Source: Felixounavirus AN17P8
Direction: 5' to 3' (one strand)
Length of the DNA: 64,000 nt
Sequence record: OZ035742.1
The position numbers were made by a program, and so were the translations under genes. Below are positions 42,400-48,600 of the stretch, piece after piece (the first letter of the stretch is position 1; each line of letters starts with the position of its first letter). The notes below the pieces were generated by a model, which was not told where the DNA came from, ran no database searches, and was given only the letters and a program-made list of their open reading frames with translations.

Positions 42400-43185
42400 A
42401 TGGGTATTGTAAAAATCATCAATGGCGATATCTTTGCCGCATTTGATAAAGGTAAGTTTGACATTATTGGTCACGGTTGCAACTGTATGAATTTAATGGG
42501 TGCAGGTATCGCTGACAAGATTTCTAAACTTTACCCAAAAGCATATGAGACAGATACAGAAGTCTATCTATATGCAGGTGGCATAGGCCACAAACCCTGT
42601 GAAAATTTACTGGGTAATTTCTCTGTAGCACGTTTAAAACAAGGTCGTATAGCTAACCTTTACACTCAGCTTAAGACTGGTAAAGATGCCCGATACAGTG
42701 CTTTAGAGTCATCTTTGAAACAGCTTAACAGATACTGTGAAGTTAACCAGTTGAAGAAGGTTGGTCTACCTATGATTGGTGCAGGTATCGGTGGACTTGA
42801 CCCCCAAGCTGTCACAGTCATCATCAATCAGGTGATGAAGAGTGTAGACGTTTATCTATATGTCTATGAAGGAGAGATGTACCACAAGTTACGCTCAGGT
42901 TGGAAGAACTACTGTGAACCAGAATACTTTGCAGGTGTAGCAGTGTTCACGGATAACGCAGTTACCCTCTTCAGACGAAGAAAAGGTAAGATACATCAAA
43001 GTAACCCTCCGGTTGAAAGGATGTCTCTAAGTAACGCTCTAGTTACCCACCTGTCGAAGAGCAATCACAGAATAGCTGTGACATTTGGTAGTGATGCAGA
43101 TGCTTACATCTATGCAAGAACTGATGAGGATATCGAGGCAATTTTCTCATCACCGGAAGTTACCTTCTTAGACGCAAAGAACTAA
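42400..43185 (+). CDS. macro domain protein (TARG1/DarG-like ADP-ribose hydrolase fold)
   Basis: NGDIF...DIIGHGCNCMNLMGAGIA matches TARG1-type HCISEDCRMGAGIA; second glycine loop GLPMIGAGIGGL; C-terminal ~110-aa extension. Confidence 0.65.
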   Translation: MGIVKIINGDIFAAFDKGKFDIIGHGCNCMNLMGAGIADKISKLYPKAYETDTEVYLYAGGIGHKPCENLLGNFSVARLKQGRIANLYTQLKTGKDARYSALESSLKQLNRYCEVNQLKKVGLPMIGAGIGGLDPQAVTVIINQVMKSVDVYLYVYEGEMYHKLRSGWKNYCEPEYFAGVAVFTDNAVTLFRRRKGKIHQSNPPVERMSLSNALVTHLSKSNHRIAVTFGSDADAYIYARTDEDIEAIFSSPEVTFLDAKN

Positions 43186-43253
43186 GAAACTCTGTAGAAT
43201 ATTCACAATAGACTAAGCCTTTCTTATCTGGTAAATTTTTCAGGTAAGGGGGC

Positions 43254-43438
43254 TTTTTCATTTCAGGATTGTGCAGGTAGAGTTCTGTATAGAAATCTGT
43301 AGAGAAAATTTTGAACTCCAAAGGGAAAATTCATTTTCAAGCTGTGCAGGTAATCTCCAAAGAGCTTTTTCATTTTCAAAACGTGCAGACCCCGCTCAGG
43401 TCGGGCAAGAAAAATCATTTTAGAATCGTGCAGGTAGG
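43254..43438. repeat. four direct repeats TCATTTYnnnnnnGTGCAGGTA
   Basis: Copies at ~43258, 43330, 43368, 43413 with irregular 39-73 bp spacing; between macro-domain gene and cassette. Confidence 0.6.
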
Positions 43439-43621
43439 TGGATGCAGGTGGGGATGTCGCCATTTCTCACAAGGCTACCACATCTGGAAATAAAAGTCAA
43501 CATAAAACTTTGTAGCGGATTGAAAAATAATTCTTGATTGTAGTTCTGTTTTGTGGTAGTCGCGCGCACCCGTTTCATTACAATTTTTGCAAAAAAAAAA
43601 AAAATATTTTTAAAATTCCTA

Positions 43622-43650
43622 TTGACTCTTTGAGTATGGTTATCTAATAT
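43622..43650 (+). promoter_or_regulatory. strong sigma70-like promoter, cassette gene 1
   Basis: TTGACT-N17-TAATAT preceded by a 14-A tract (43591-43604); conserved leader hairpin 43661-43681 follows. Confidence 0.55.
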
Positions 43651-43713
43651 TTGCATCAACGGGGAGGGAATGACCTTCCCCACTAAGTAAAGTCCTAAAC
43701 TGGAGATTCTAAA

Positions 43714-44094
43714 ATGGCATACCGTGCACCTAAATTCATCAATAAAGACAACTTTCGCAACGCACTGGAGAAGTCACTTGATGAGAATTTTAAAGGTAAC
43801 GTTATCGTTGTTCACTCTTTCAATTTCAAGTATGATATCAACGGGAATAAAATCAATCATTACACGGCAACCATGATAGATGGTGCGCTATCAAGTGAAA
43901 AAGCTGTACTAAATGCACTGGCAGGACGTGGAAAGGTTTTAGTAAGATGTGATAAGCGACGTTATCAGGGCGGTGCATATGGTTATGACGATGCTATCTA
44001 TCATCTGGAAAATATGGGCTATCAAGTAGAAAAAGCTGGGGTATCACAAATCATCGGCAGTGATGGCTACGTGACAATCTTCAAAATTAAATAA
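43714..44094 (+). CDS. small protein 1 of promoter-cassette cluster
   Basis: Own promoter TTGACT-N17-TAATAT, 5'UTR hairpin, RBS ggag; 126 aa. Confidence 0.5.
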   Translation: MAYRAPKFINKDNFRNALEKSLDENFKGNVIVVHSFNFKYDINGNKINHYTATMIDGALSSEKAVLNALAGRGKVLVRCDKRRYQGGAYGYDDAIYHLENMGYQVEKAGVSQIIGSDGYVTIFKIK

Positions 44095-44182
44095 AAAGTA
44101 CTTTACAAGGGGCTTATAGTTCGATAAAGTAAGCCCCAGATAAAGAGCTTTACCACTAAATCCTAAATTGGAGAACTTAAAA

Positions 44183-44473
44183 ATGGCTATTATCAAAAAC
44201 GTTGTAATTCCTGCAAAAACTCGTGATGACGCTCGCAACGTGGCTAAAAAGTTATGCGGAAAAGTTGTTGACAACGGGAAGCAATCCGCTGTAAGATGGG
44301 GTGTGAAGGCTGATAAACAGTTGAAGTTAAAAAATTCACCAATAAATCTTTTTACATGTGTAAACACTATCGGGAAGACAAATGTATACACGAAAAAGGC
44401 ATATATTAGATGCGTAGCCTTAACATCTCCAATTCGTACAATGAGAGGTTATGCAAAGCTGAAAATTAACTGA
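44183..44473 (+). CDS. small basic protein 2 of cassette cluster
   Basis: Conserved leader (GGGGCTTA hairpin plus ggag RBS); start moved from TTG 44168 to ATG 44183. Confidence 0.45.
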   Translation: MAIIKNVVIPAKTRDDARNVAKKLCGKVVDNGKQSAVRWGVKADKQLKLKNSPINLFTCVNTIGKTNVYTKKAYIRCVALTSPIRTMRGYAKLKIN

Positions 44474-44561
44474 TAAAGTACTTTACAGGGGGCTTAAAAG
44501 TTGATATCTTAAGCCCCAGATAAAGAGCTTTACCACTAAATCCTAAACTGGAGATTCAAAA

Positions 44562-45125
44562 ATGAAATGCTATCACGGAACTACCCTCAAAAACTTTGTA
44601 AACCTGCTGAATGGTGGCGACAAGCCGGAAGGAATCTGGAACTGCTCATACATGGATGATTGTTTCTACGTTTACCCAATGAACAAGATTATCAAAACGG
44701 AATGTCTGGAAGATGAGGAAGATTCTTACATTCGTGAACGCTGCATTCAAAACGCTTTAGAATCTGGGCTTATTACGGCAGCTTTCCAAATGGAAACGCA
44801 GGACGTAATTGTCATTGAGATGGATATCCCAGAGGAAGAGCTAGAGGATGATTATTCTTGTGACAACATGAGCGATATCGCCAGCTTTACCGGACACTTT
44901 GATAAAAATTGGATTATTGGCCTTCACTCGACGAAATTTAGTGCGATGTATGCACCTTTCTTTGTACCAGATGCAACTAACCGCAATTTAGGCTATGTTG
45001 ACGATGATTTGTTAAGTATGGCGAAAATTGTACAGAATAGCGGTGATAGCTCCGTGTTTTGTGACTTGCTGGATAAAATCACGGCAAACATCACAGAGCG
45101 CAATTTAAAAGACTTTTTAGGTTAA
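44562..45125 (+). CDS. acidic protein 3 of cassette cluster
   Basis: Same conserved leader; 187 aa with D/E-rich patches (EDEEDSY, DIPEEELEDDYSCDNMSD). Confidence 0.5.
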   Translation: MKCYHGTTLKNFVNLLNGGDKPEGIWNCSYMDDCFYVYPMNKIIKTECLEDEEDSYIRERCIQNALESGLITAAFQMETQDVIVIEMDIPEEELEDDYSCDNMSDIASFTGHFDKNWIIGLHSTKFSAMYAPFFVPDATNRNLGYVDDDLLSMAKIVQNSGDSSVFCDLLDKITANITERNLKDFLG

Positions 45126-45188
45126 TCAGTACAAAGACACCAACTTCCAACTTAAGGCCCATACAGGGCCATTTAAAGGGCTTAAATC

Positions 45189-45422
45189 ATGCTTACAACC
45201 ATTTATCTTATCCTTTCTATTTGTAATGGTCATTTATGTGATTTTAAAGGGCTTGAGGAGTTTACAGGGAGTAAAGAAAATGCTATTCAAGTTTGCCAGA
45301 TAGCAAGACAAGACTATCCCGCCAGTGATGATATTCAATGCTACTTTAAGACAGAAGATGAAGACGGCATTTATTTTGATAGTGTTGACGGTCAATATGA
45401 AATTATCATTGAAAAAGACTAG
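45189..45422 (+). CDS. small protein 4 of cassette cluster
   Basis: 77 aa, hydrophobic N-terminus MLTTIYLILSICNGHLC. Confidence 0.4.
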   Translation: MLTTIYLILSICNGHLCDFKGLEEFTGSKENAIQVCQIARQDYPASDDIQCYFKTEDEDGIYFDSVDGQYEIIIEKD

Positions 45423-45448
45423 ACAAACCTGATAAAAGCTTGTAAATT
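45420..45448 (+). promoter_or_regulatory. sigma70-like promoter, cassette gene 5
   Basis: TAGACA-N17-TAAATT followed by leader gtcaatcaacGGGGAGGGaatgaCCTTCCCC. Confidence 0.5.
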
Positions 45449-45512
45449 GTCAATCAACGGGGAGGGAATGACCTTCCCCACTAAATAAAGTCCTTAAACT
45501 AGGAGATTCAAA

Positions 45513-45854
45513 ATGGCTTATGTAACCGTAATTACCGATAAAGCTGACTCATCTTGGTCAACTCAAGTAAGTGACAAGATGTCACCTATGCAGTGCCTAA
45601 AATACTTTGAGCAGTGGAACAAAGGCGAGGATGTAAGCCCCTTTCAGGTAATGCAAATCATCCATGTAGATAATGAAGGCAATAAAACGGTTTTAAATAG
45701 TGAGTACTACGCAAACCGTTTTGAAACTAGAAGTAAAACAATGAAGCTTTTACGTGAATCCGGTTACTCCCATATCGCCGCGCTAATCTGGGATGACCTG
45801 CTAAAAAGTCAGCGTATCAGCTATGTAAAACCTGAAAAAATATTCATCAGTTAA
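45513..45854 (+). CDS. small protein 5 of cassette cluster
   Basis: Own promoter TAGACA-N17-TAAATT, 5'UTR hairpin, RBS ggag. Confidence 0.5.
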   Translation: MAYVTVITDKADSSWSTQVSDKMSPMQCLKYFEQWNKGEDVSPFQVMQIIHVDNEGNKTVLNSEYYANRFETRSKTMKLLRESGYSHIAALIWDDLLKSQRISYVKPEKIFIS

Positions 45855-45984
45855 TCAATAACTTACAAAAAACTTTTAAAAAAGTGTTGACAATACCCCT
45901 TGACATTGGTAACTTTGTTCGAGGGGGTTTATCTAAAAGGGATTCACTTAAAAGATTCTTTATAGATAAGCTTAAAAAATTGCT

Positions 45985-46013
45985 TGCAATCAGATATCAA
46001 AACAAGTAAATTA
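45985..46013 (+). promoter_or_regulatory. sigma70-like promoter, cassette gene 6
   Basis: TTGCAA-N17-TAAATT followed by covarying leader hairpin GGGAGGTaatgACCTCCC. Confidence 0.5.
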
Positions 46014-46073
46014 CTAATCAACGGGAGGTAATGACCTCCCCACTAAATAAAGTCCTAAACTGGAGATTCTAAA

Positions 46074-46604
46074 ATGAACAAGTTCAAAGCTATCAACTAT
46101 ATTCGTTCAAATGCTGTAATGTCAAAGCCTGTAAAAGACACATACGAATTTCGTTGCAATGGGGTACACTTTGCAACCATCACTAAGTCAGAAAACGGGG
46201 CTTATTACGTACATCGTCGTAATGTTGCAACCGTTGTAGTCTCTCACTTTATGCAAGCTGTAGCGGAGTTATTACCGTTATTCTTAGAGATTTATCTAGG
46301 TGAGTGTAAAAACGTTCGTAACCACGTTAAAAACCTTTTAAACGGTTATAAAATGGCTTATGAACGTTCTATCAAGTCCTTAAACAAGTTTTATAAAGCT
46401 CCTGTAAACACTGTTTCAATGGCTTACAGTGTAAGCGGTGAGTTGGTTAGTCTCTTCGAAGTGGAAGAAATCGAACTATATAACTCACGTCCTAGCGGTT
46501 ACTCTAAGACACTAGGAGAGGGCTTATCTTTCAATATCAAGAACTTAGAAAAAACTTTAAAAGATATTGAAAAAGATATTGACGAGACAATCAAAAATCT
46601 GTAA
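46074..46604 (+). CDS. protein 6 of cassette cluster
   Basis: Own promoter TTGCAA-N17-TAAATT, covarying 5'UTR hairpin, RBS ggag. Confidence 0.5.
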   Translation: MNKFKAINYIRSNAVMSKPVKDTYEFRCNGVHFATITKSENGAYYVHRRNVATVVVSHFMQAVAELLPLFLEIYLGECKNVRNHVKNLLNGYKMAYERSIKSLNKFYKAPVNTVSMAYSVSGELVSLFEVEEIELYNSRPSGYSKTLGEGLSFNIKNLEKTLKDIEKDIDETIKNL

Positions 46605-46607
46605 ATT
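46579..46607 (+). promoter_or_regulatory. sigma70-like promoter, cassette gene 7
   Basis: TTGACG-N17-TAAATT embedded in 3' end of gene 6; same leader hairpin. Confidence 0.5.
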
Positions 46608-46683
46608 ACTAATCAACGGGGAGGGAATGACCTTCCCCACTAAATAAAACCCTTAATCAACTTCCTAAACTGGAGATTCTAAA

Positions 46684-46932
46684 ATGGCTACTATCCGCGC
46701 TACTGTTAACGAATTTGGTTTTTACTCTCTGGATGTTAAATTTGACCTTGTAGGCACTGATAACGCCTTTGAAATGGTGAAAGGCCTTATCAGCCAGACC
46801 ATCAGCGATTACAATCCTTCTGATGAATTCTGGAAAGAAACAAAAGAGGAAGTTCTCAAAGAGGGTTACACTTATCACTATTGGGGTGAAAAAATTGTAT
46901 CCCTGTACTACGACAAAGAAGGCACTAACTAA
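46684..46932 (+). CDS. small protein 7 of cassette cluster
   Basis: Own promoter TTGACG-N17-TAAATT (inside 3' end of previous gene), 5'UTR hairpin, RBS; terminator follows. Confidence 0.5.
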   Translation: MATIRATVNEFGFYSLDVKFDLVGTDNAFEMVKGLISQTISDYNPSDEFWKETKEEVLKEGYTYHYWGEKIVSLYYDKEGTN

Positions 46933-46942
46933 ACGCCGCAAC

Positions 46943-46993
46943 GGGGCTAAATAGCCCCAGATACCTTTGCAGCCCCTTAAATGGGGCTTTTTT
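46943..46993 (+). terminator. double hairpin terminator ending the small-gene cassette
   Basis: GGGGCTaaatAGCCCC then AGCCCC-ttaaat-GGGGCT-TTTTTT. Confidence 0.6.
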
Positions 46994-46995
46994 AC

Positions 46996-48600
46996 GTCTA
47001 TCGAATCCTTATACAAACCCTTTCCTTCTCCTTTCTAGAATCTTATCAGACCTTAAAAAGCAATAACTCTATAGCCTACTCTATAGCCTTTTATCAAATC
47101 AGTTTAAATATAAGCCCATAACCCGAAAGGGAAGGGCAACCACTATAACGCTCTATAACGCTCTATAACAGCCTTATCAACCTAACTTAAGCAATCATAT
47201 TAACCCACTCTAAAAAGCCCTTTATAGAGCTTCTTAGAGCCTTAAAAGAATCTTATAAGTGTGTAAGCTTTATCATCTCGTTAGTTATCTTGTGAACTAC
47301 TAAAAAGGGCTTGTTATTGTCTTAAAAGTATGTTATAGGGGCTATGAAGTTACTTTGAAGTAGCTTAAAAGTTACGTAAATGCTAGCCCCCTTAACATTT
47401 TCTTAACAATTTCTTAACAAATTCTACATAGTTATGCTTGTTAGAGACTTGTTAGCCTCTTGTTAAATCTCTGTTAAGACCACGTAAAAGCCTTGTAAGA
47501 GTCTTTGGCATAGCCTTCAAAGCTCCTGTAAAGCCCTATAAAGAGCTATCCGTACAGTTGAGGGGTAAATACTAGGGAGAGACTTAAAAGAGCCTATAAA
47601 GAGCTATAGAGAGCTTTTAAAAGGTATGTTTAAAGAATCACTAAGAAAGGAAAGGGAATGATAAGAAAGAAGAGTTGTGTTTGTAAACAACCACTGTGAC
47701 CATGTTAATAGCTTGTTAAAAAGATTAAACACTTGTTAGAAACTTGTTAATTATCTTAACAAAATAACTTTTTAAAATTAACTATATAACTCTTGTTAGT
47801 CATCTGTTAAGCATCTGTAAAGACTATTCAGCACTTGTTAGAAAACTGTTAAGCTCTTGTTAGTTCTGTTAAGAATCTGCTAAGACCTTTGAAGAGTTGT
47901 TAAGAAGATGTGAGAACTGTTAAGAGATTGTTAAGGATATTTTAAAATTCTGCAAAGTACTTGTAAGGGAGCTGTTAAGGGCTACCAAGCAGATATACAT
48001 CTTCTACAGATATTTTTCAGTTCCTTCAAAGACCCTAAAAAATGACTTGATAGTCCTATTTTATAAAAATTTTAAAATTCTGAATAATTACCTATACAGT
48101 CTTTTAAAAATACAGGTAGAAACAGGCTTATAAGATACCTTGTTAGTACCGTGTTAGACCTTGTGAGATAAGGTCTGTAAAGATATTCCTGTTAAGTTTG
48201 TTAAAACAGTCTATATAGAGGCTTAGTAATACCTAGTGAACACCTATAGAGGGTGTCATAGCTGACATAATGGGTTACTGTTAAGTAACACAGATAACCT
48301 AGAGATTAAGAGGTGTATAGGGGCTTCTAAGAGTGTGTAGAGAGATGGTTAAGGTGATTGTATAGGCTGTTAAGAAGGCTTGTTAGAAGAGTGTTTAGAA
48401 GGTTTGTTAGAGGGCTAGTTAGAAGGGTTATACAGAGGGGCTATTAAGACCACTAGATAATTACTAAGATACTATATAGTACTATATAACTATATAGAGA
48501 GTAAGATTAAGAAGGTTGTTAAGAAGGGTAGATATTTTATTCACATATGATGGTGACCCAGAGGTTGGGACAACCGATAAAATTTTATAAAAATTAAAAA
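46996..48600. repeat. non-coding iteron-rich region (YTTGTTAR/CTGTTAAG, ~12-bp phasing)
   Basis: More than 30 copies of TTGTTAG/TTGTTAA/CTGTTAAG, several runs at 11-12 bp periodicity; also CTCTATAACG x3 and TATAAAGAGCT repeats; no ORF over 60 aa. Confidence 0.7.

Follow-up and report, generated by a model that had tools for sequence, protein, structure and literature searches.

Seven small genes, all on the + strand and encoding proteins of 77–187 amino acids (aa), lie in succession from 43714–44094 to 46684–46932 in a stretch of Felixounavirus AN17P8 DNA (record OZ035742.1) whose full length of 64,000 nt is here called the window; the open reading frames (ORFs) are those that an earlier note on this DNA had listed. 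Six of the seven are preceded by a control cassette of about 90 nt made up of a predicted promoter of host type, a G/C-clamped hairpin and a fixed ribosome-binding site, with six copies in 3.3 kb and none elsewhere in the window. The block is probably a hyperplastic array of accessory genes set in cassettes that serve both regulation and recombination, in the manner of the promoter-early stem-loop elements (PeSLs) of T4-like myoviruses. Its genes, cassettes and boundaries are as follows, promoter hexamers and Shine–Dalgarno (SD) sequences being predictions.

43219..43252, + strand: intrinsic terminator closing the upstream operon (Felix O1 't13'), 13-bp stem and T run; left array boundary
43622..43713, + strand: type A cassette 1 (gene 1); −35 TTGACT 43622-43627, −10 TAATAT 43645-43650, hairpin 43661-43681 after ..ATCAAC, SD GGAG 43702-43705
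43714..44094, + strand: gene 1, 126 aa, phrog_4495, 'unknown function'
44095..44182, + strand: type B cassette 1 (gene 2); −35 TTTACA 44102-44107, −10 TAAAGT 44125-44130, SD GGAG; inner stem 44109-44137, extended helix 44095-44151
44183..44473, + strand: gene 2, 96 aa, very basic (pI 10.4), phrog_5089, 'unknown function'
44474..44561, + strand: type B cassette 2 (gene 3); −35 TTTACA 44482-44487, TGn-extended −10 TATCTT 44505-44510; inner stem 44489-44517, extended helix about 44471-44535
44562..45125, + strand: gene 3, 187 aa, acidic; candidate ADP-ribosyltransferase-fold protein (Tpt1/toxin-like)
45156..45170, + strand: small 5-bp hairpin GGCCCauacaGGGCC in the interval between genes 3 and 4; no promoter
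45189..45422, + strand: gene 4, 77 aa, acidic, hydrophobic N-terminus, phrog_4640
45420..45512, + strand: type A cassette 2 (gene 5); −35 TAGACA 45420-45425, −10 TAAATT 45443-45448, hairpin 45459-45479, variant SD module CCTTAAACTAGGAG
45513..45854, + strand: gene 5, 113 aa, phrog_4318, homologue of Felix O1 gene 21
45984..46073, + strand: type A cassette 3 (gene 6); −35 TTGCAA 45984-45989, −10 TAAATT 46007-46012, variant hairpin GGGAGGTaatgACCTCCC 46023-46040
46074..46604, + strand: gene 6, 176 aa, phrog_4725, homologue of Felix O1 gene 22
46579..46683, + strand: type A cassette 4 (gene 7); −35 TTGACG 46579-46584 within the end of gene 6, −10 TAAATT 46602-46607, hairpin 46618-46638, 12-nt hybrid insertion ahead of the SD module
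46684..46932, + strand: gene 7, 82 aa, phrog_4559, homologue of Felix O1 gene 23
46943..46958, + strand: geneless cassette remnant CAAC-GGGGCTAaataTAGCCCC-AGATA, in which a type B stem and flank follow a type A start context
46971..46994, + strand: intrinsic terminator (Felix O1 't23'), found by the terminator scan (46971-46988) and listed in the Felix O1 paper; right array boundary

The repeats are real and strongly non-random. A 30-nt leader core, CAACGGGGAGGGAATGACCTTCCCCACTAA, occurs in three exact copies (genes 1, 5 and 7), the ribosome-binding context CCTAAACTGGAGATTCTAAAATG in four copies with at most one mismatch and the second family, GGGGCTTA...TAAGCCCCAGATAAAGAGC, twice (genes 2 and 3), none of these being expected by chance (100 shuffles for the core). 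Both families of shared leader in the earlier note are thus borne out, and its four −35/N17/−10 pairs were found where it had placed them. In type A (genes 1, 5, 6 and 7) the order is −35, 17 nt, TAAATT or TAATAT, 10 nt ending in ATCAAC, a hairpin of 18–21 nt and CCTAAACTGGAG..ATG; an SD context, CCTAAA(C/T)TGGAG or CCTTAAACTAGGAG, is common to all six cassette-bearing genes. The note had given every gene a near-identical private promoter while naming four, which overstates the case: at the level of sequence a private promoter stands for six of the seven (type A for genes 1, 5, 6 and 7, type B for genes 2 and 3); genes 2 and 3 have a different element, and gene 4 is without a promoter. Neither cassette family lies upstream of gene 4, only the 5-bp hairpin at 45156–45170 and then a weak SD, and it is probably co-transcribed with gene 3. 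The counterpart of that hairpin in Bas63 and Michonne reads GCCCC/GGGGC, a flipped pair. Stop codons also fall inside promoter hexamers, the TAG of gene 4 in TAGACA (45420) and the TAA of gene 6 in TAAATT (46602).

Megablast with 43500–47000 retrieved 254 phage records, nearly all Felixounavirus (of Escherichia, Salmonella and Shigella) or Mooglevirus (of Citrobacter), with a best identity of about 90%, coverage of no more than 76% in any record and matches split into 2–7 pieces, that is, a mosaic. By these matches the phage of the window is a Felix O1-like myovirus (Ounavirinae) of the genus Felixounavirus, and with that the earlier note's analogy with the pre-early regions of T5-like phages fails. 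Only 43219–43252 and 46971–46988 pass the terminator scan. Since the genome paper of Felix O1 (Whichard et al. 2010, PMC3185647) lists them as t13, with the same sequence, and t23, the block is to be equated by sequence with the variable small-gene array between them, the counterpart of Felix O1 genes 14–23. Homologous arrays of AYO145A, Felix O1, Bas63, Michonne, Mordin, Sf13, LF82P3, GLBO_sp7, SSBS18 and LF110P2 were compared together with 44 IMG/VR stretches that have a type B core, 54 related loci in all; in IMG/VR that core is solely on contigs of 53–94 kb of this lineage. Anchoring on the SD module gave 339 distinct leaders, and there were 85 distinct type A cores and 61 type B cores with 57 distinct stems to analyse.

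Across these loci both cassette layouts are rigid while the sequences of the hairpins vary. The type A −35 is TTGCAA, TTGACA, TTGACG, TAGACA or TTGACT, 83 of the 85 distinct cores have a 17-nt spacer, the −10 is mostly TAAATT (64), with TAAAGT (9) and TAATAT (6) as the next variants, and the distance from −10 to stem, ending ATCAAC, is exactly 10 nt in 80. In alignment A1 the columns without variation are T1, A2 and T6 of the −10, together with the AAC that leads into the stem; information distributed in this way over the −10 is, as far as an alignment can tell, what characterizes a sigma70 −10 element. Several copies have their −35 and spacer inside the end of the gene upstream, and the first promoter of the array, that of type A cassette 1, is kept in Bas63, SSBS18, LF82P3 and LF110P2.

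Type B is organized otherwise. TTTACA is invariant and is followed after 17 nt (54 cores) or 18 nt (6 cores), that is in 60 of 61, by TAnnnT, the middle three bases of which vary freely (TATCTT, TAAGAT, TAAAGT, TAGTAT and others), with a TGn extension in 37 of the 60. This combination of a fixed spacing and a hexamer with free middle bases is why type B is read here as a promoter with the stem-loop occupying its spacer and −10. The comparison thus supports a private, predicted sigma70-type promoter for six of the seven genes. The SD module that completes the cassettes stands 7–10 nt before the ATG, as CCTAAACTGGAG in 166 of the distinct leaders and as CCTTAAACTAGGAG in 120. The linked T...A insertions that distinguish these two forms, for which there is no intermediate among the 339 leaders, would add a U–A pair to a 3-bp mini-hairpin sequestering the SD; they were set aside as evidence for structure since, with 6 nt between the sites, linkage by descent accounts for them.

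Are the hairpins selected as RNA structure? All window copies fold as predicted, with z-scores of −2.7 to −3.5, and stem stability in both types is −9 to −16 kcal/mol, where shuffles reach about −3 to −4. There are at least 49 distinct type A hairpins, nearly all of −9 to −15 kcal/mol and including shorter ones such as GGGCaagcaaGCCC and GGGAaacaTCCC. Column covariation was sought with a MAFFT alignment, structure-pair counts and RNAalifold (G/C-run indels disrupt the type A columns), and because it is weak for type A and the inner stem of type B is almost invariant, alignment-free tests and an anchor-based count of the outer type B helix were added. Mean stability for type A is −10.1 kcal/mol, compared with −2.9 for mononucleotide shuffles, −8.35 for chimeras of 5' and 3' arms and −8.9 for the antisense strand; the corresponding values for type B are −12.0, −3.9, −10.3 and −10.7 kcal/mol. 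In one pair of the inner type B stem C–G (28 sequences) alternates with U–G (27), and through such G–U wobbles the stems are specific to one strand, as would be expected of sense RNA more than of a palindrome in duplex DNA.

On RNA reading through from upstream, the type B helix would extend to 18–19 bp, interrupted, as AAAGU.CUUUA...stem...UAAAG.GCUUU. The outer helix is 97.7% paired over 129 distinct copies, a level of pairing reached in none of 2000 permutations, and at one of its pairs G–C (102) alternates with U–A (15) across several types of inner stem. Type A has one truly covarying pair (AU 27, GC 5, CG 4, GU 3), and its double-change cells number 11 compared with 6.0 ± 2.1 in shuffles. 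Selection as structure is accordingly well supported by comparison for the type B hairpin, and for type A it is probable. What the earlier note had taken as an argument for RNA selection, the compensatory change in the gene 6 hairpin GGGAGGTaatgACCTCCC, is real and folds with 7 bp; since type A column covariation is weak, it is suggestive and not decisive. The note's placing of the hairpins as stem-loops of the 5' untranslated region (5'UTR) fits type A, with its stem 10 nt after the −10, and does not fit type B, whose hairpin overlaps the promoter and for that reason should lie outside the 5'UTR of its own transcript. The hairpins were rejected as intrinsic terminators, since what comes after the stem, ACTAAATA in type A and AGATAAAG in type B, is not a U-tract.

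The evidence that the cassettes are also joints at which genes are exchanged is of a different kind. Array size runs from 7 genes in the window through 8 in LF82P3, 9–10 in Felix O1 and 14 in Bas63 to 19 in Michonne and Sf13, with up to about 18 cassette copies in each of the relatives' arrays. The same gene family can stand behind either type of leader: that of gene 1 is behind type A in the window and LF110P2 and behind type B in Bas63, Michonne, Mordin, Sf13, LF82P3 and SSBS18, and that of gene 5 is behind A in Felixounavirus and B in Mooglevirus. When 43200–47100 was compared by BLAST with all loci, 150 of the 187 internal alignment ends (80%) fell in the six cassette intervals, against the 16% expected from their share of the length; a binomial p-value overstates independence here, as the genomes are related, and the pattern is still unambiguous. 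A major synteny breakpoint, with about 60 ends of high-scoring segment pairs (HSPs) at 44460–44580, is at type B cassette 2, and another cluster, at 46600–46690, is at type A cassette 4. Where cassettes are missing (1.8 kb missing), adjacent HSPs overlap by one leader. Within the window itself the marks of recombination are the geneless A/B hybrid hairpin at 46943–46958 and the 12-nt hybrid insertion in the leader of gene 7. A rival idea, of selfish or neutral repeats that recombination or homing would have spread and that are devoid of a regulatory role, draws on the same facts (near-identical copies, indel junctions, geneless scars) and can be given hardly any credence, as the repeats always have one orientation, always end in the SD and ATG of a real ORF, and, in two genera whose flanking sequence is about 70% identical, have retained promoter geometry and stable hairpins.

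Some individual joints deserve mention. In the leader of gene 7 (46644–46663) the approximately 12 extra nt (..AAAACCCTTAATCAACTTCCTAAACTGGAG) look as if an SD module of the CCCTTAAAC type had been joined to the leader, ATCAA..CTTCCTAAACTGGAG, that hairpin-less promoters have in relatives. The Michonne locus (L004, about 2860–2950) has a complete type B leader with its ATG running straight into a second type B leader, and in Mordin (L005, about 2400–2474) two type B elements are fused at a shared CTTTAC. Felix O1-type cassettes, at 94% identity, also turn up at four places in 134430–135110 of GU169904.1, the 147-kb record of Staphylococcus phage SA1, a record that is probably chimeric or contaminated.

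The closest precedent is that of the PeSLs (Arbiol et al. 2010, PMC2839356; Comeau et al. 2014, PMC4122927), for which promoter and terminator activity and mini-circles have been shown experimentally. Both are intergenic cassettes of about 100 nt that combine a GGGG...CCCC stem-loop with an SD and start codon and with an early promoter of sigma70-like sequence, a predicted one in Ounavirinae, in many copies before small ORFans of hyperplastic regions and at the junctions of insertions, deletions and replacements between close relatives. The stable stem is adjacent to the promoter in both, either between −35 and −10, which is the commonest PeSL layout and that of type B, or just after the −10 as in type A. 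Differences are that Ounavirinae are not T4-like, that no sequence homology is seen, that the translation-initiation module of the window cassettes is far more rigid and that type B extends to an 18–19-bp helix. Since the elements do not go beyond Ounavirinae, the phage itself being a Felixounavirus, the cassettes are filed as PeSL-like and not as homologous members. Both this precedent and the recombination role had been overlooked in the earlier note.

How might such a cassette work? Its DNA would supply a host sigma70 promoter for early transcription of each gene by unmodified host RNA polymerase, and the G4/C4-clamped stem-loop is encoded in it as well. If type A transcription starts some 7 nt downstream of the −10, the mRNA would begin (C)AAC and enter the stem at about +3/+4, and a stem 2–4 nt from the 5' end would most likely guard against 5'-end-dependent decay (RppH/RNase E). 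In type B transcription would start just past the 3' arm, near CAGAUAAAG, giving the gene's own mRNA no stem; the helix would form on read-through RNA and most likely insulate the units as attenuator, 3'-end stabilizer or, possibly, RNase III site. A stem 2–4 nt from the 5' end is what blocks 5'-end-dependent decay in the ompA type of 5'-terminal stem-loop, and processing at the RNase III sites of T7 early RNA leaves a protective 3' hairpin. Type A resembles the one and type B the other, by analogy and not by membership. The shared translation-initiation module (CCTAAACTGGAGAWTCTAAAATG) that ends all cassettes may provide uniform translation and possibly a single post-transcriptional control point. 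Because 60–100 nt are near-identical between cassettes these could be substrates for homologous recombination, which would delete and insert genes and re-pair them with leaders and so lead to the 7–19-gene diversity. That diversity and the breakpoints come from sequence comparison; the recombination mechanism we infer.

Several considerations weigh against this reading. A generic promoter scan of the array gave 38 sites where 26.7 ± 5.7 were expected, which is no enrichment over shuffles and the reason why the promoter claim needs the comparative support described; each site is a weak-to-moderate match to consensus (8–9 of 12). In type B the TTTACA doubles as part of the outer helix, and for that reason its being invariant cannot count as separate evidence of a −35. 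Relatives have a third class in which promoter and SD module come without a hairpin. As to structure, type A columns are 84.5% paired, hardly different from the 82.9% of shuffles; the inner type B stem is 97% paired and yet almost invariant, with covariation nearly absent; some copies have stem mismatches, e.g. GGGGCGGG and GGTGAGGG; and, the copies being paralogous and probably homogenized by recombination, conservation of the stems could be DNA-level inheritance. Classical termination is unlikely as the stems are without U-tracts. Literature searches on Felixounavirus and Ounavirinae yielded no description of a transcriptome, of a promoter-hairpin cassette or of transcription starts. Lastly, in published reverse transcription PCR (RT-PCR) of Felix O1, ORFs 14, 17, 19 and 23, half of the array ORFs, peak at 25 min.

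The other half of that RT-PCR data set is more congenial: ORFs 16, 20, 21 and 22 peak at 5 min. With the Felix O1 numbering mapped through the repeat positions in the paper and the locus map, ORFs 21, 22 and 23 correspond to genes 5, 6 and 7. The early expression proposed in the earlier note is thus partly supported, since the counterparts of genes 5 and 6 have their peak at 5 min; that of gene 7, at 25 min, goes the other way. That expression should be very high, simultaneous and immediate-early, as the note has it, is a conjecture.

There are other ways to look at the array. It could be a single early operon in which just the first promoter (43622–43650) fires, the polycistronic RNA being cut into stable monocistronic mRNAs as in the T7 early region, with the hairpins as RNase III/RNase E processing and stabilizer sites and the other hexamers incidental. 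Just two canonical terminators bound the array, a hairpin is upstream of every gene, promoter-less gene 4 included, and the extended type B helix, conserved and covarying at one pair, is of a size (9 + 5 + 5 bp, with internal loops) within the range of phage RNase III sites such as the T7 R sites. What processing leaves unexplained is that 60 of 61 type B loops keep T1, A2 and T6 of the putative −10 while the neighbouring bases vary, often with TGn; nor would it account for the −35, N17, −10, N10 geometry of type A persisting even inside differing upstream coding sequences, and type A stems, at 6–8 bp, are too short for RNase III. We consider the single operon improbable.

More doubtful again is that the inverted repeats and SD module (CCUAAACUGGAGAAUCUAAAAUG) are sites for a phage regulator that shuts off the whole array, whether as a DNA operator at +4..+24 or as the RNA target of a RegA-like repressor or of a RegB-like nuclease with GGAG as its cleavage site. 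Two genera show hardly any variation in the outer GGGG/CCCC or in the 20-nt SD module, as might be expected of a binding site, all the SDs are GGAG with an A-rich tract, partly like the T4 RegB site GGAGRAYARAA, and the annotators of Mordin likened the module to the start-associated sequences of mycobacteriophages, which are themselves suspected of binding a factor. Stem interiors and loops vary in sequence and length, though (at least 49 type A and 57 type B variants), and the G–U wobbles are specific to one strand, so that structure fits better than a sequence-specific DNA operator; no regulator has been identified and the match to the RegB consensus is partial.

Returning to PeSL-like cassettes as the preferred explanation, a bolder version of it may be entertained tentatively, though it is rather unlikely to hold. 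Type B would be bifunctional, a promoter as DNA and, in RNA from upstream, a lock that holds −35 and −10 in the 18–19-bp helix. That helix would then either obstruct RNA polymerase or be cut, whether by RNase III or by a nuclease of the phage. With type A and the universal SD module added, the result would be an integron-like, plug-and-play system of gene capture, with exchange at the hairpins or the SD module and possibly involving a phage factor and mini-circles. If true, each gene would be insulated and re-initiated at one compact site.

Parts of the cassettes have been seen before. Among the 'direct repeats' of Felix O1 described by Whichard et al. (2010, PMC3185647) the 57-bp repeat corresponds to the type B core and the 39-bp one, TTGACACTGGTTTTTAGATAGATTAAATTACACATCAAC, to a type A promoter with its start region; that paper left the repeats out of its identified promoters, did not find early promoters and stated that temporal regulation was not known. 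The announcement of Mordin noted a 26-bp SD module, CCAACAATCCTAAACTGGAGAATCTA, and likened it to the start-associated sequences (SAS, with the associated ESAS) of cluster K mycobacteriophages (Pope et al. 2011, PMC3203893). Fragments of the cassette had therefore been noted, as the Felix O1 direct repeats and the SAS-like repeat of Mordin, and the PeSL concept is established for T4-like phages. The SD modules do share with SAS an asymmetric SD-containing motif 3–7 nt from the ATG of non-structural genes, in one orientation, before unrelated gene families and sometimes with inverted repeats upstream. They depart from the cluster K consensus GGGATAGGAGCCC, and sequence, host and phage group differ, so the likeness is one of analogy only; moreover SAS/ESAS are not promoter-associated and the ESAS repeats did not support RNA hairpins, whereas the Ounavirinae module makes up the 3' part of a cassette with predicted promoter and hairpin.

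As to the products, all seven match PHROGs labelled 'unknown function', and none of the seven proteins reaches the curated Pfam cut-offs. The hydrophobic N-terminus ascribed to gene 4 is present (the protein begins MLTTIYLILSIC), as is the marked acidity of gene 3 (pI 4.2, net charge −20). From that acidity a DNA mimic had been suggested, which is now unlikely. The AlphaFold2 model of gene 3 is mediocre (pLDDT 62, pTM 0.65), and its best fold matches, weak ones, are ADP-ribosyltransferase (ART)-fold proteins; a profile search of PDB sequences with gene 3 found no match. Its homologues are restricted to this lineage, with H5 conserved in at least 90% of sequences and F35-Y36-V37-Y38-P39 and E86 invariant. 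For gp107, the homologue in Bas63, a Tpt1-like similarity was reported independently by the authors of PhageMaP, who also found the gene more important on E. coli S17-1. The similarity of the model to ART folds, taken with the gp107 report, weakens the DNA-mimic idea; the gene 3 product is a candidate ART-fold protein, a modelled assignment compatible with a host-modifying early function.

A gene for a macro-domain protein (Pfam Macro; PHROG 'phosphatase') is upstream of the array at 42400–43185, 1.4 kb before gene 3 (44562–45125). Products of Tpt1 are processed to ADP-ribose-1''-phosphate, the substrate of macro-domain phosphatases. Further along, 26 tRNA genes are clustered at 58373–63585 on the + strand, and a tie of these three features to tRNA repair or NAD metabolism is possible.

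The non-coding surroundings have features of their own. Between t13 and the first array promoter, at 43258–43437, are 3–4 unevenly spaced direct repeats of about 23 nt (TCATTTYnnnnnYGTGCAGGTA), 86–94% conserved in Felixounavirus and about 70% in Mooglevirus. Some records annotate small minus-strand ORFs in this interval; the repeats could be binding sites for a regulator or replication protein. An A14 homopolymer (43591–43604) in an A/T-rich tract directly upstream of the first promoter is positioned like an UP element; its counterparts are shorter A runs in Bas63 and LF82P3 and, in SSBS18, a T14 run a few bases upstream. A conserved non-coding block (45885–45975; ..ACCCCTtgacattggtaactttgttcgAGGGGTTTATCTAAAAGGGATTCACTTAAAAGATTCTTTATAGATAAGC) separates genes 5 and 6; in Mooglevirus it is followed by an extra promoter and by a gene, absent from the window, for a predicted membrane protein of 46 aa. 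Beyond the array terminator and before a converging minus-strand unit, 47000–48600 is 1.6 kb free of ORFs and A+T-rich (GC 0.32–0.35), dense in degenerate 10–12-nt repeats (CTTGTTAG, CTGTTAAG, CTATAAAGAGCT) in both orientations and with a GC skew that switches sign, and is a candidate replication origin or packaging region. An Rfam scan by E-value of 43.0–48.7 kb gave nothing relevant among known RNA families.

For phages widely used in the typing and biocontrol of Salmonella and E. coli, these cassettes provide predictions of promoters and RNA elements that can be tested, and the compact, natural and standardized expression units they represent may serve phage engineering. The accessory genes they would control include one for a candidate NAD-using ART-fold protein, whose Bas63 homologue is conditionally important on one host. 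The idea of regulatory cassettes that double as recombination linkers is, with them, extended beyond the T4-like phages, and their occurrence in Ounavirinae suggests a convergent and general solution to the problem of keeping a fast-evolving 'toolbox' of accessory genes expressed.

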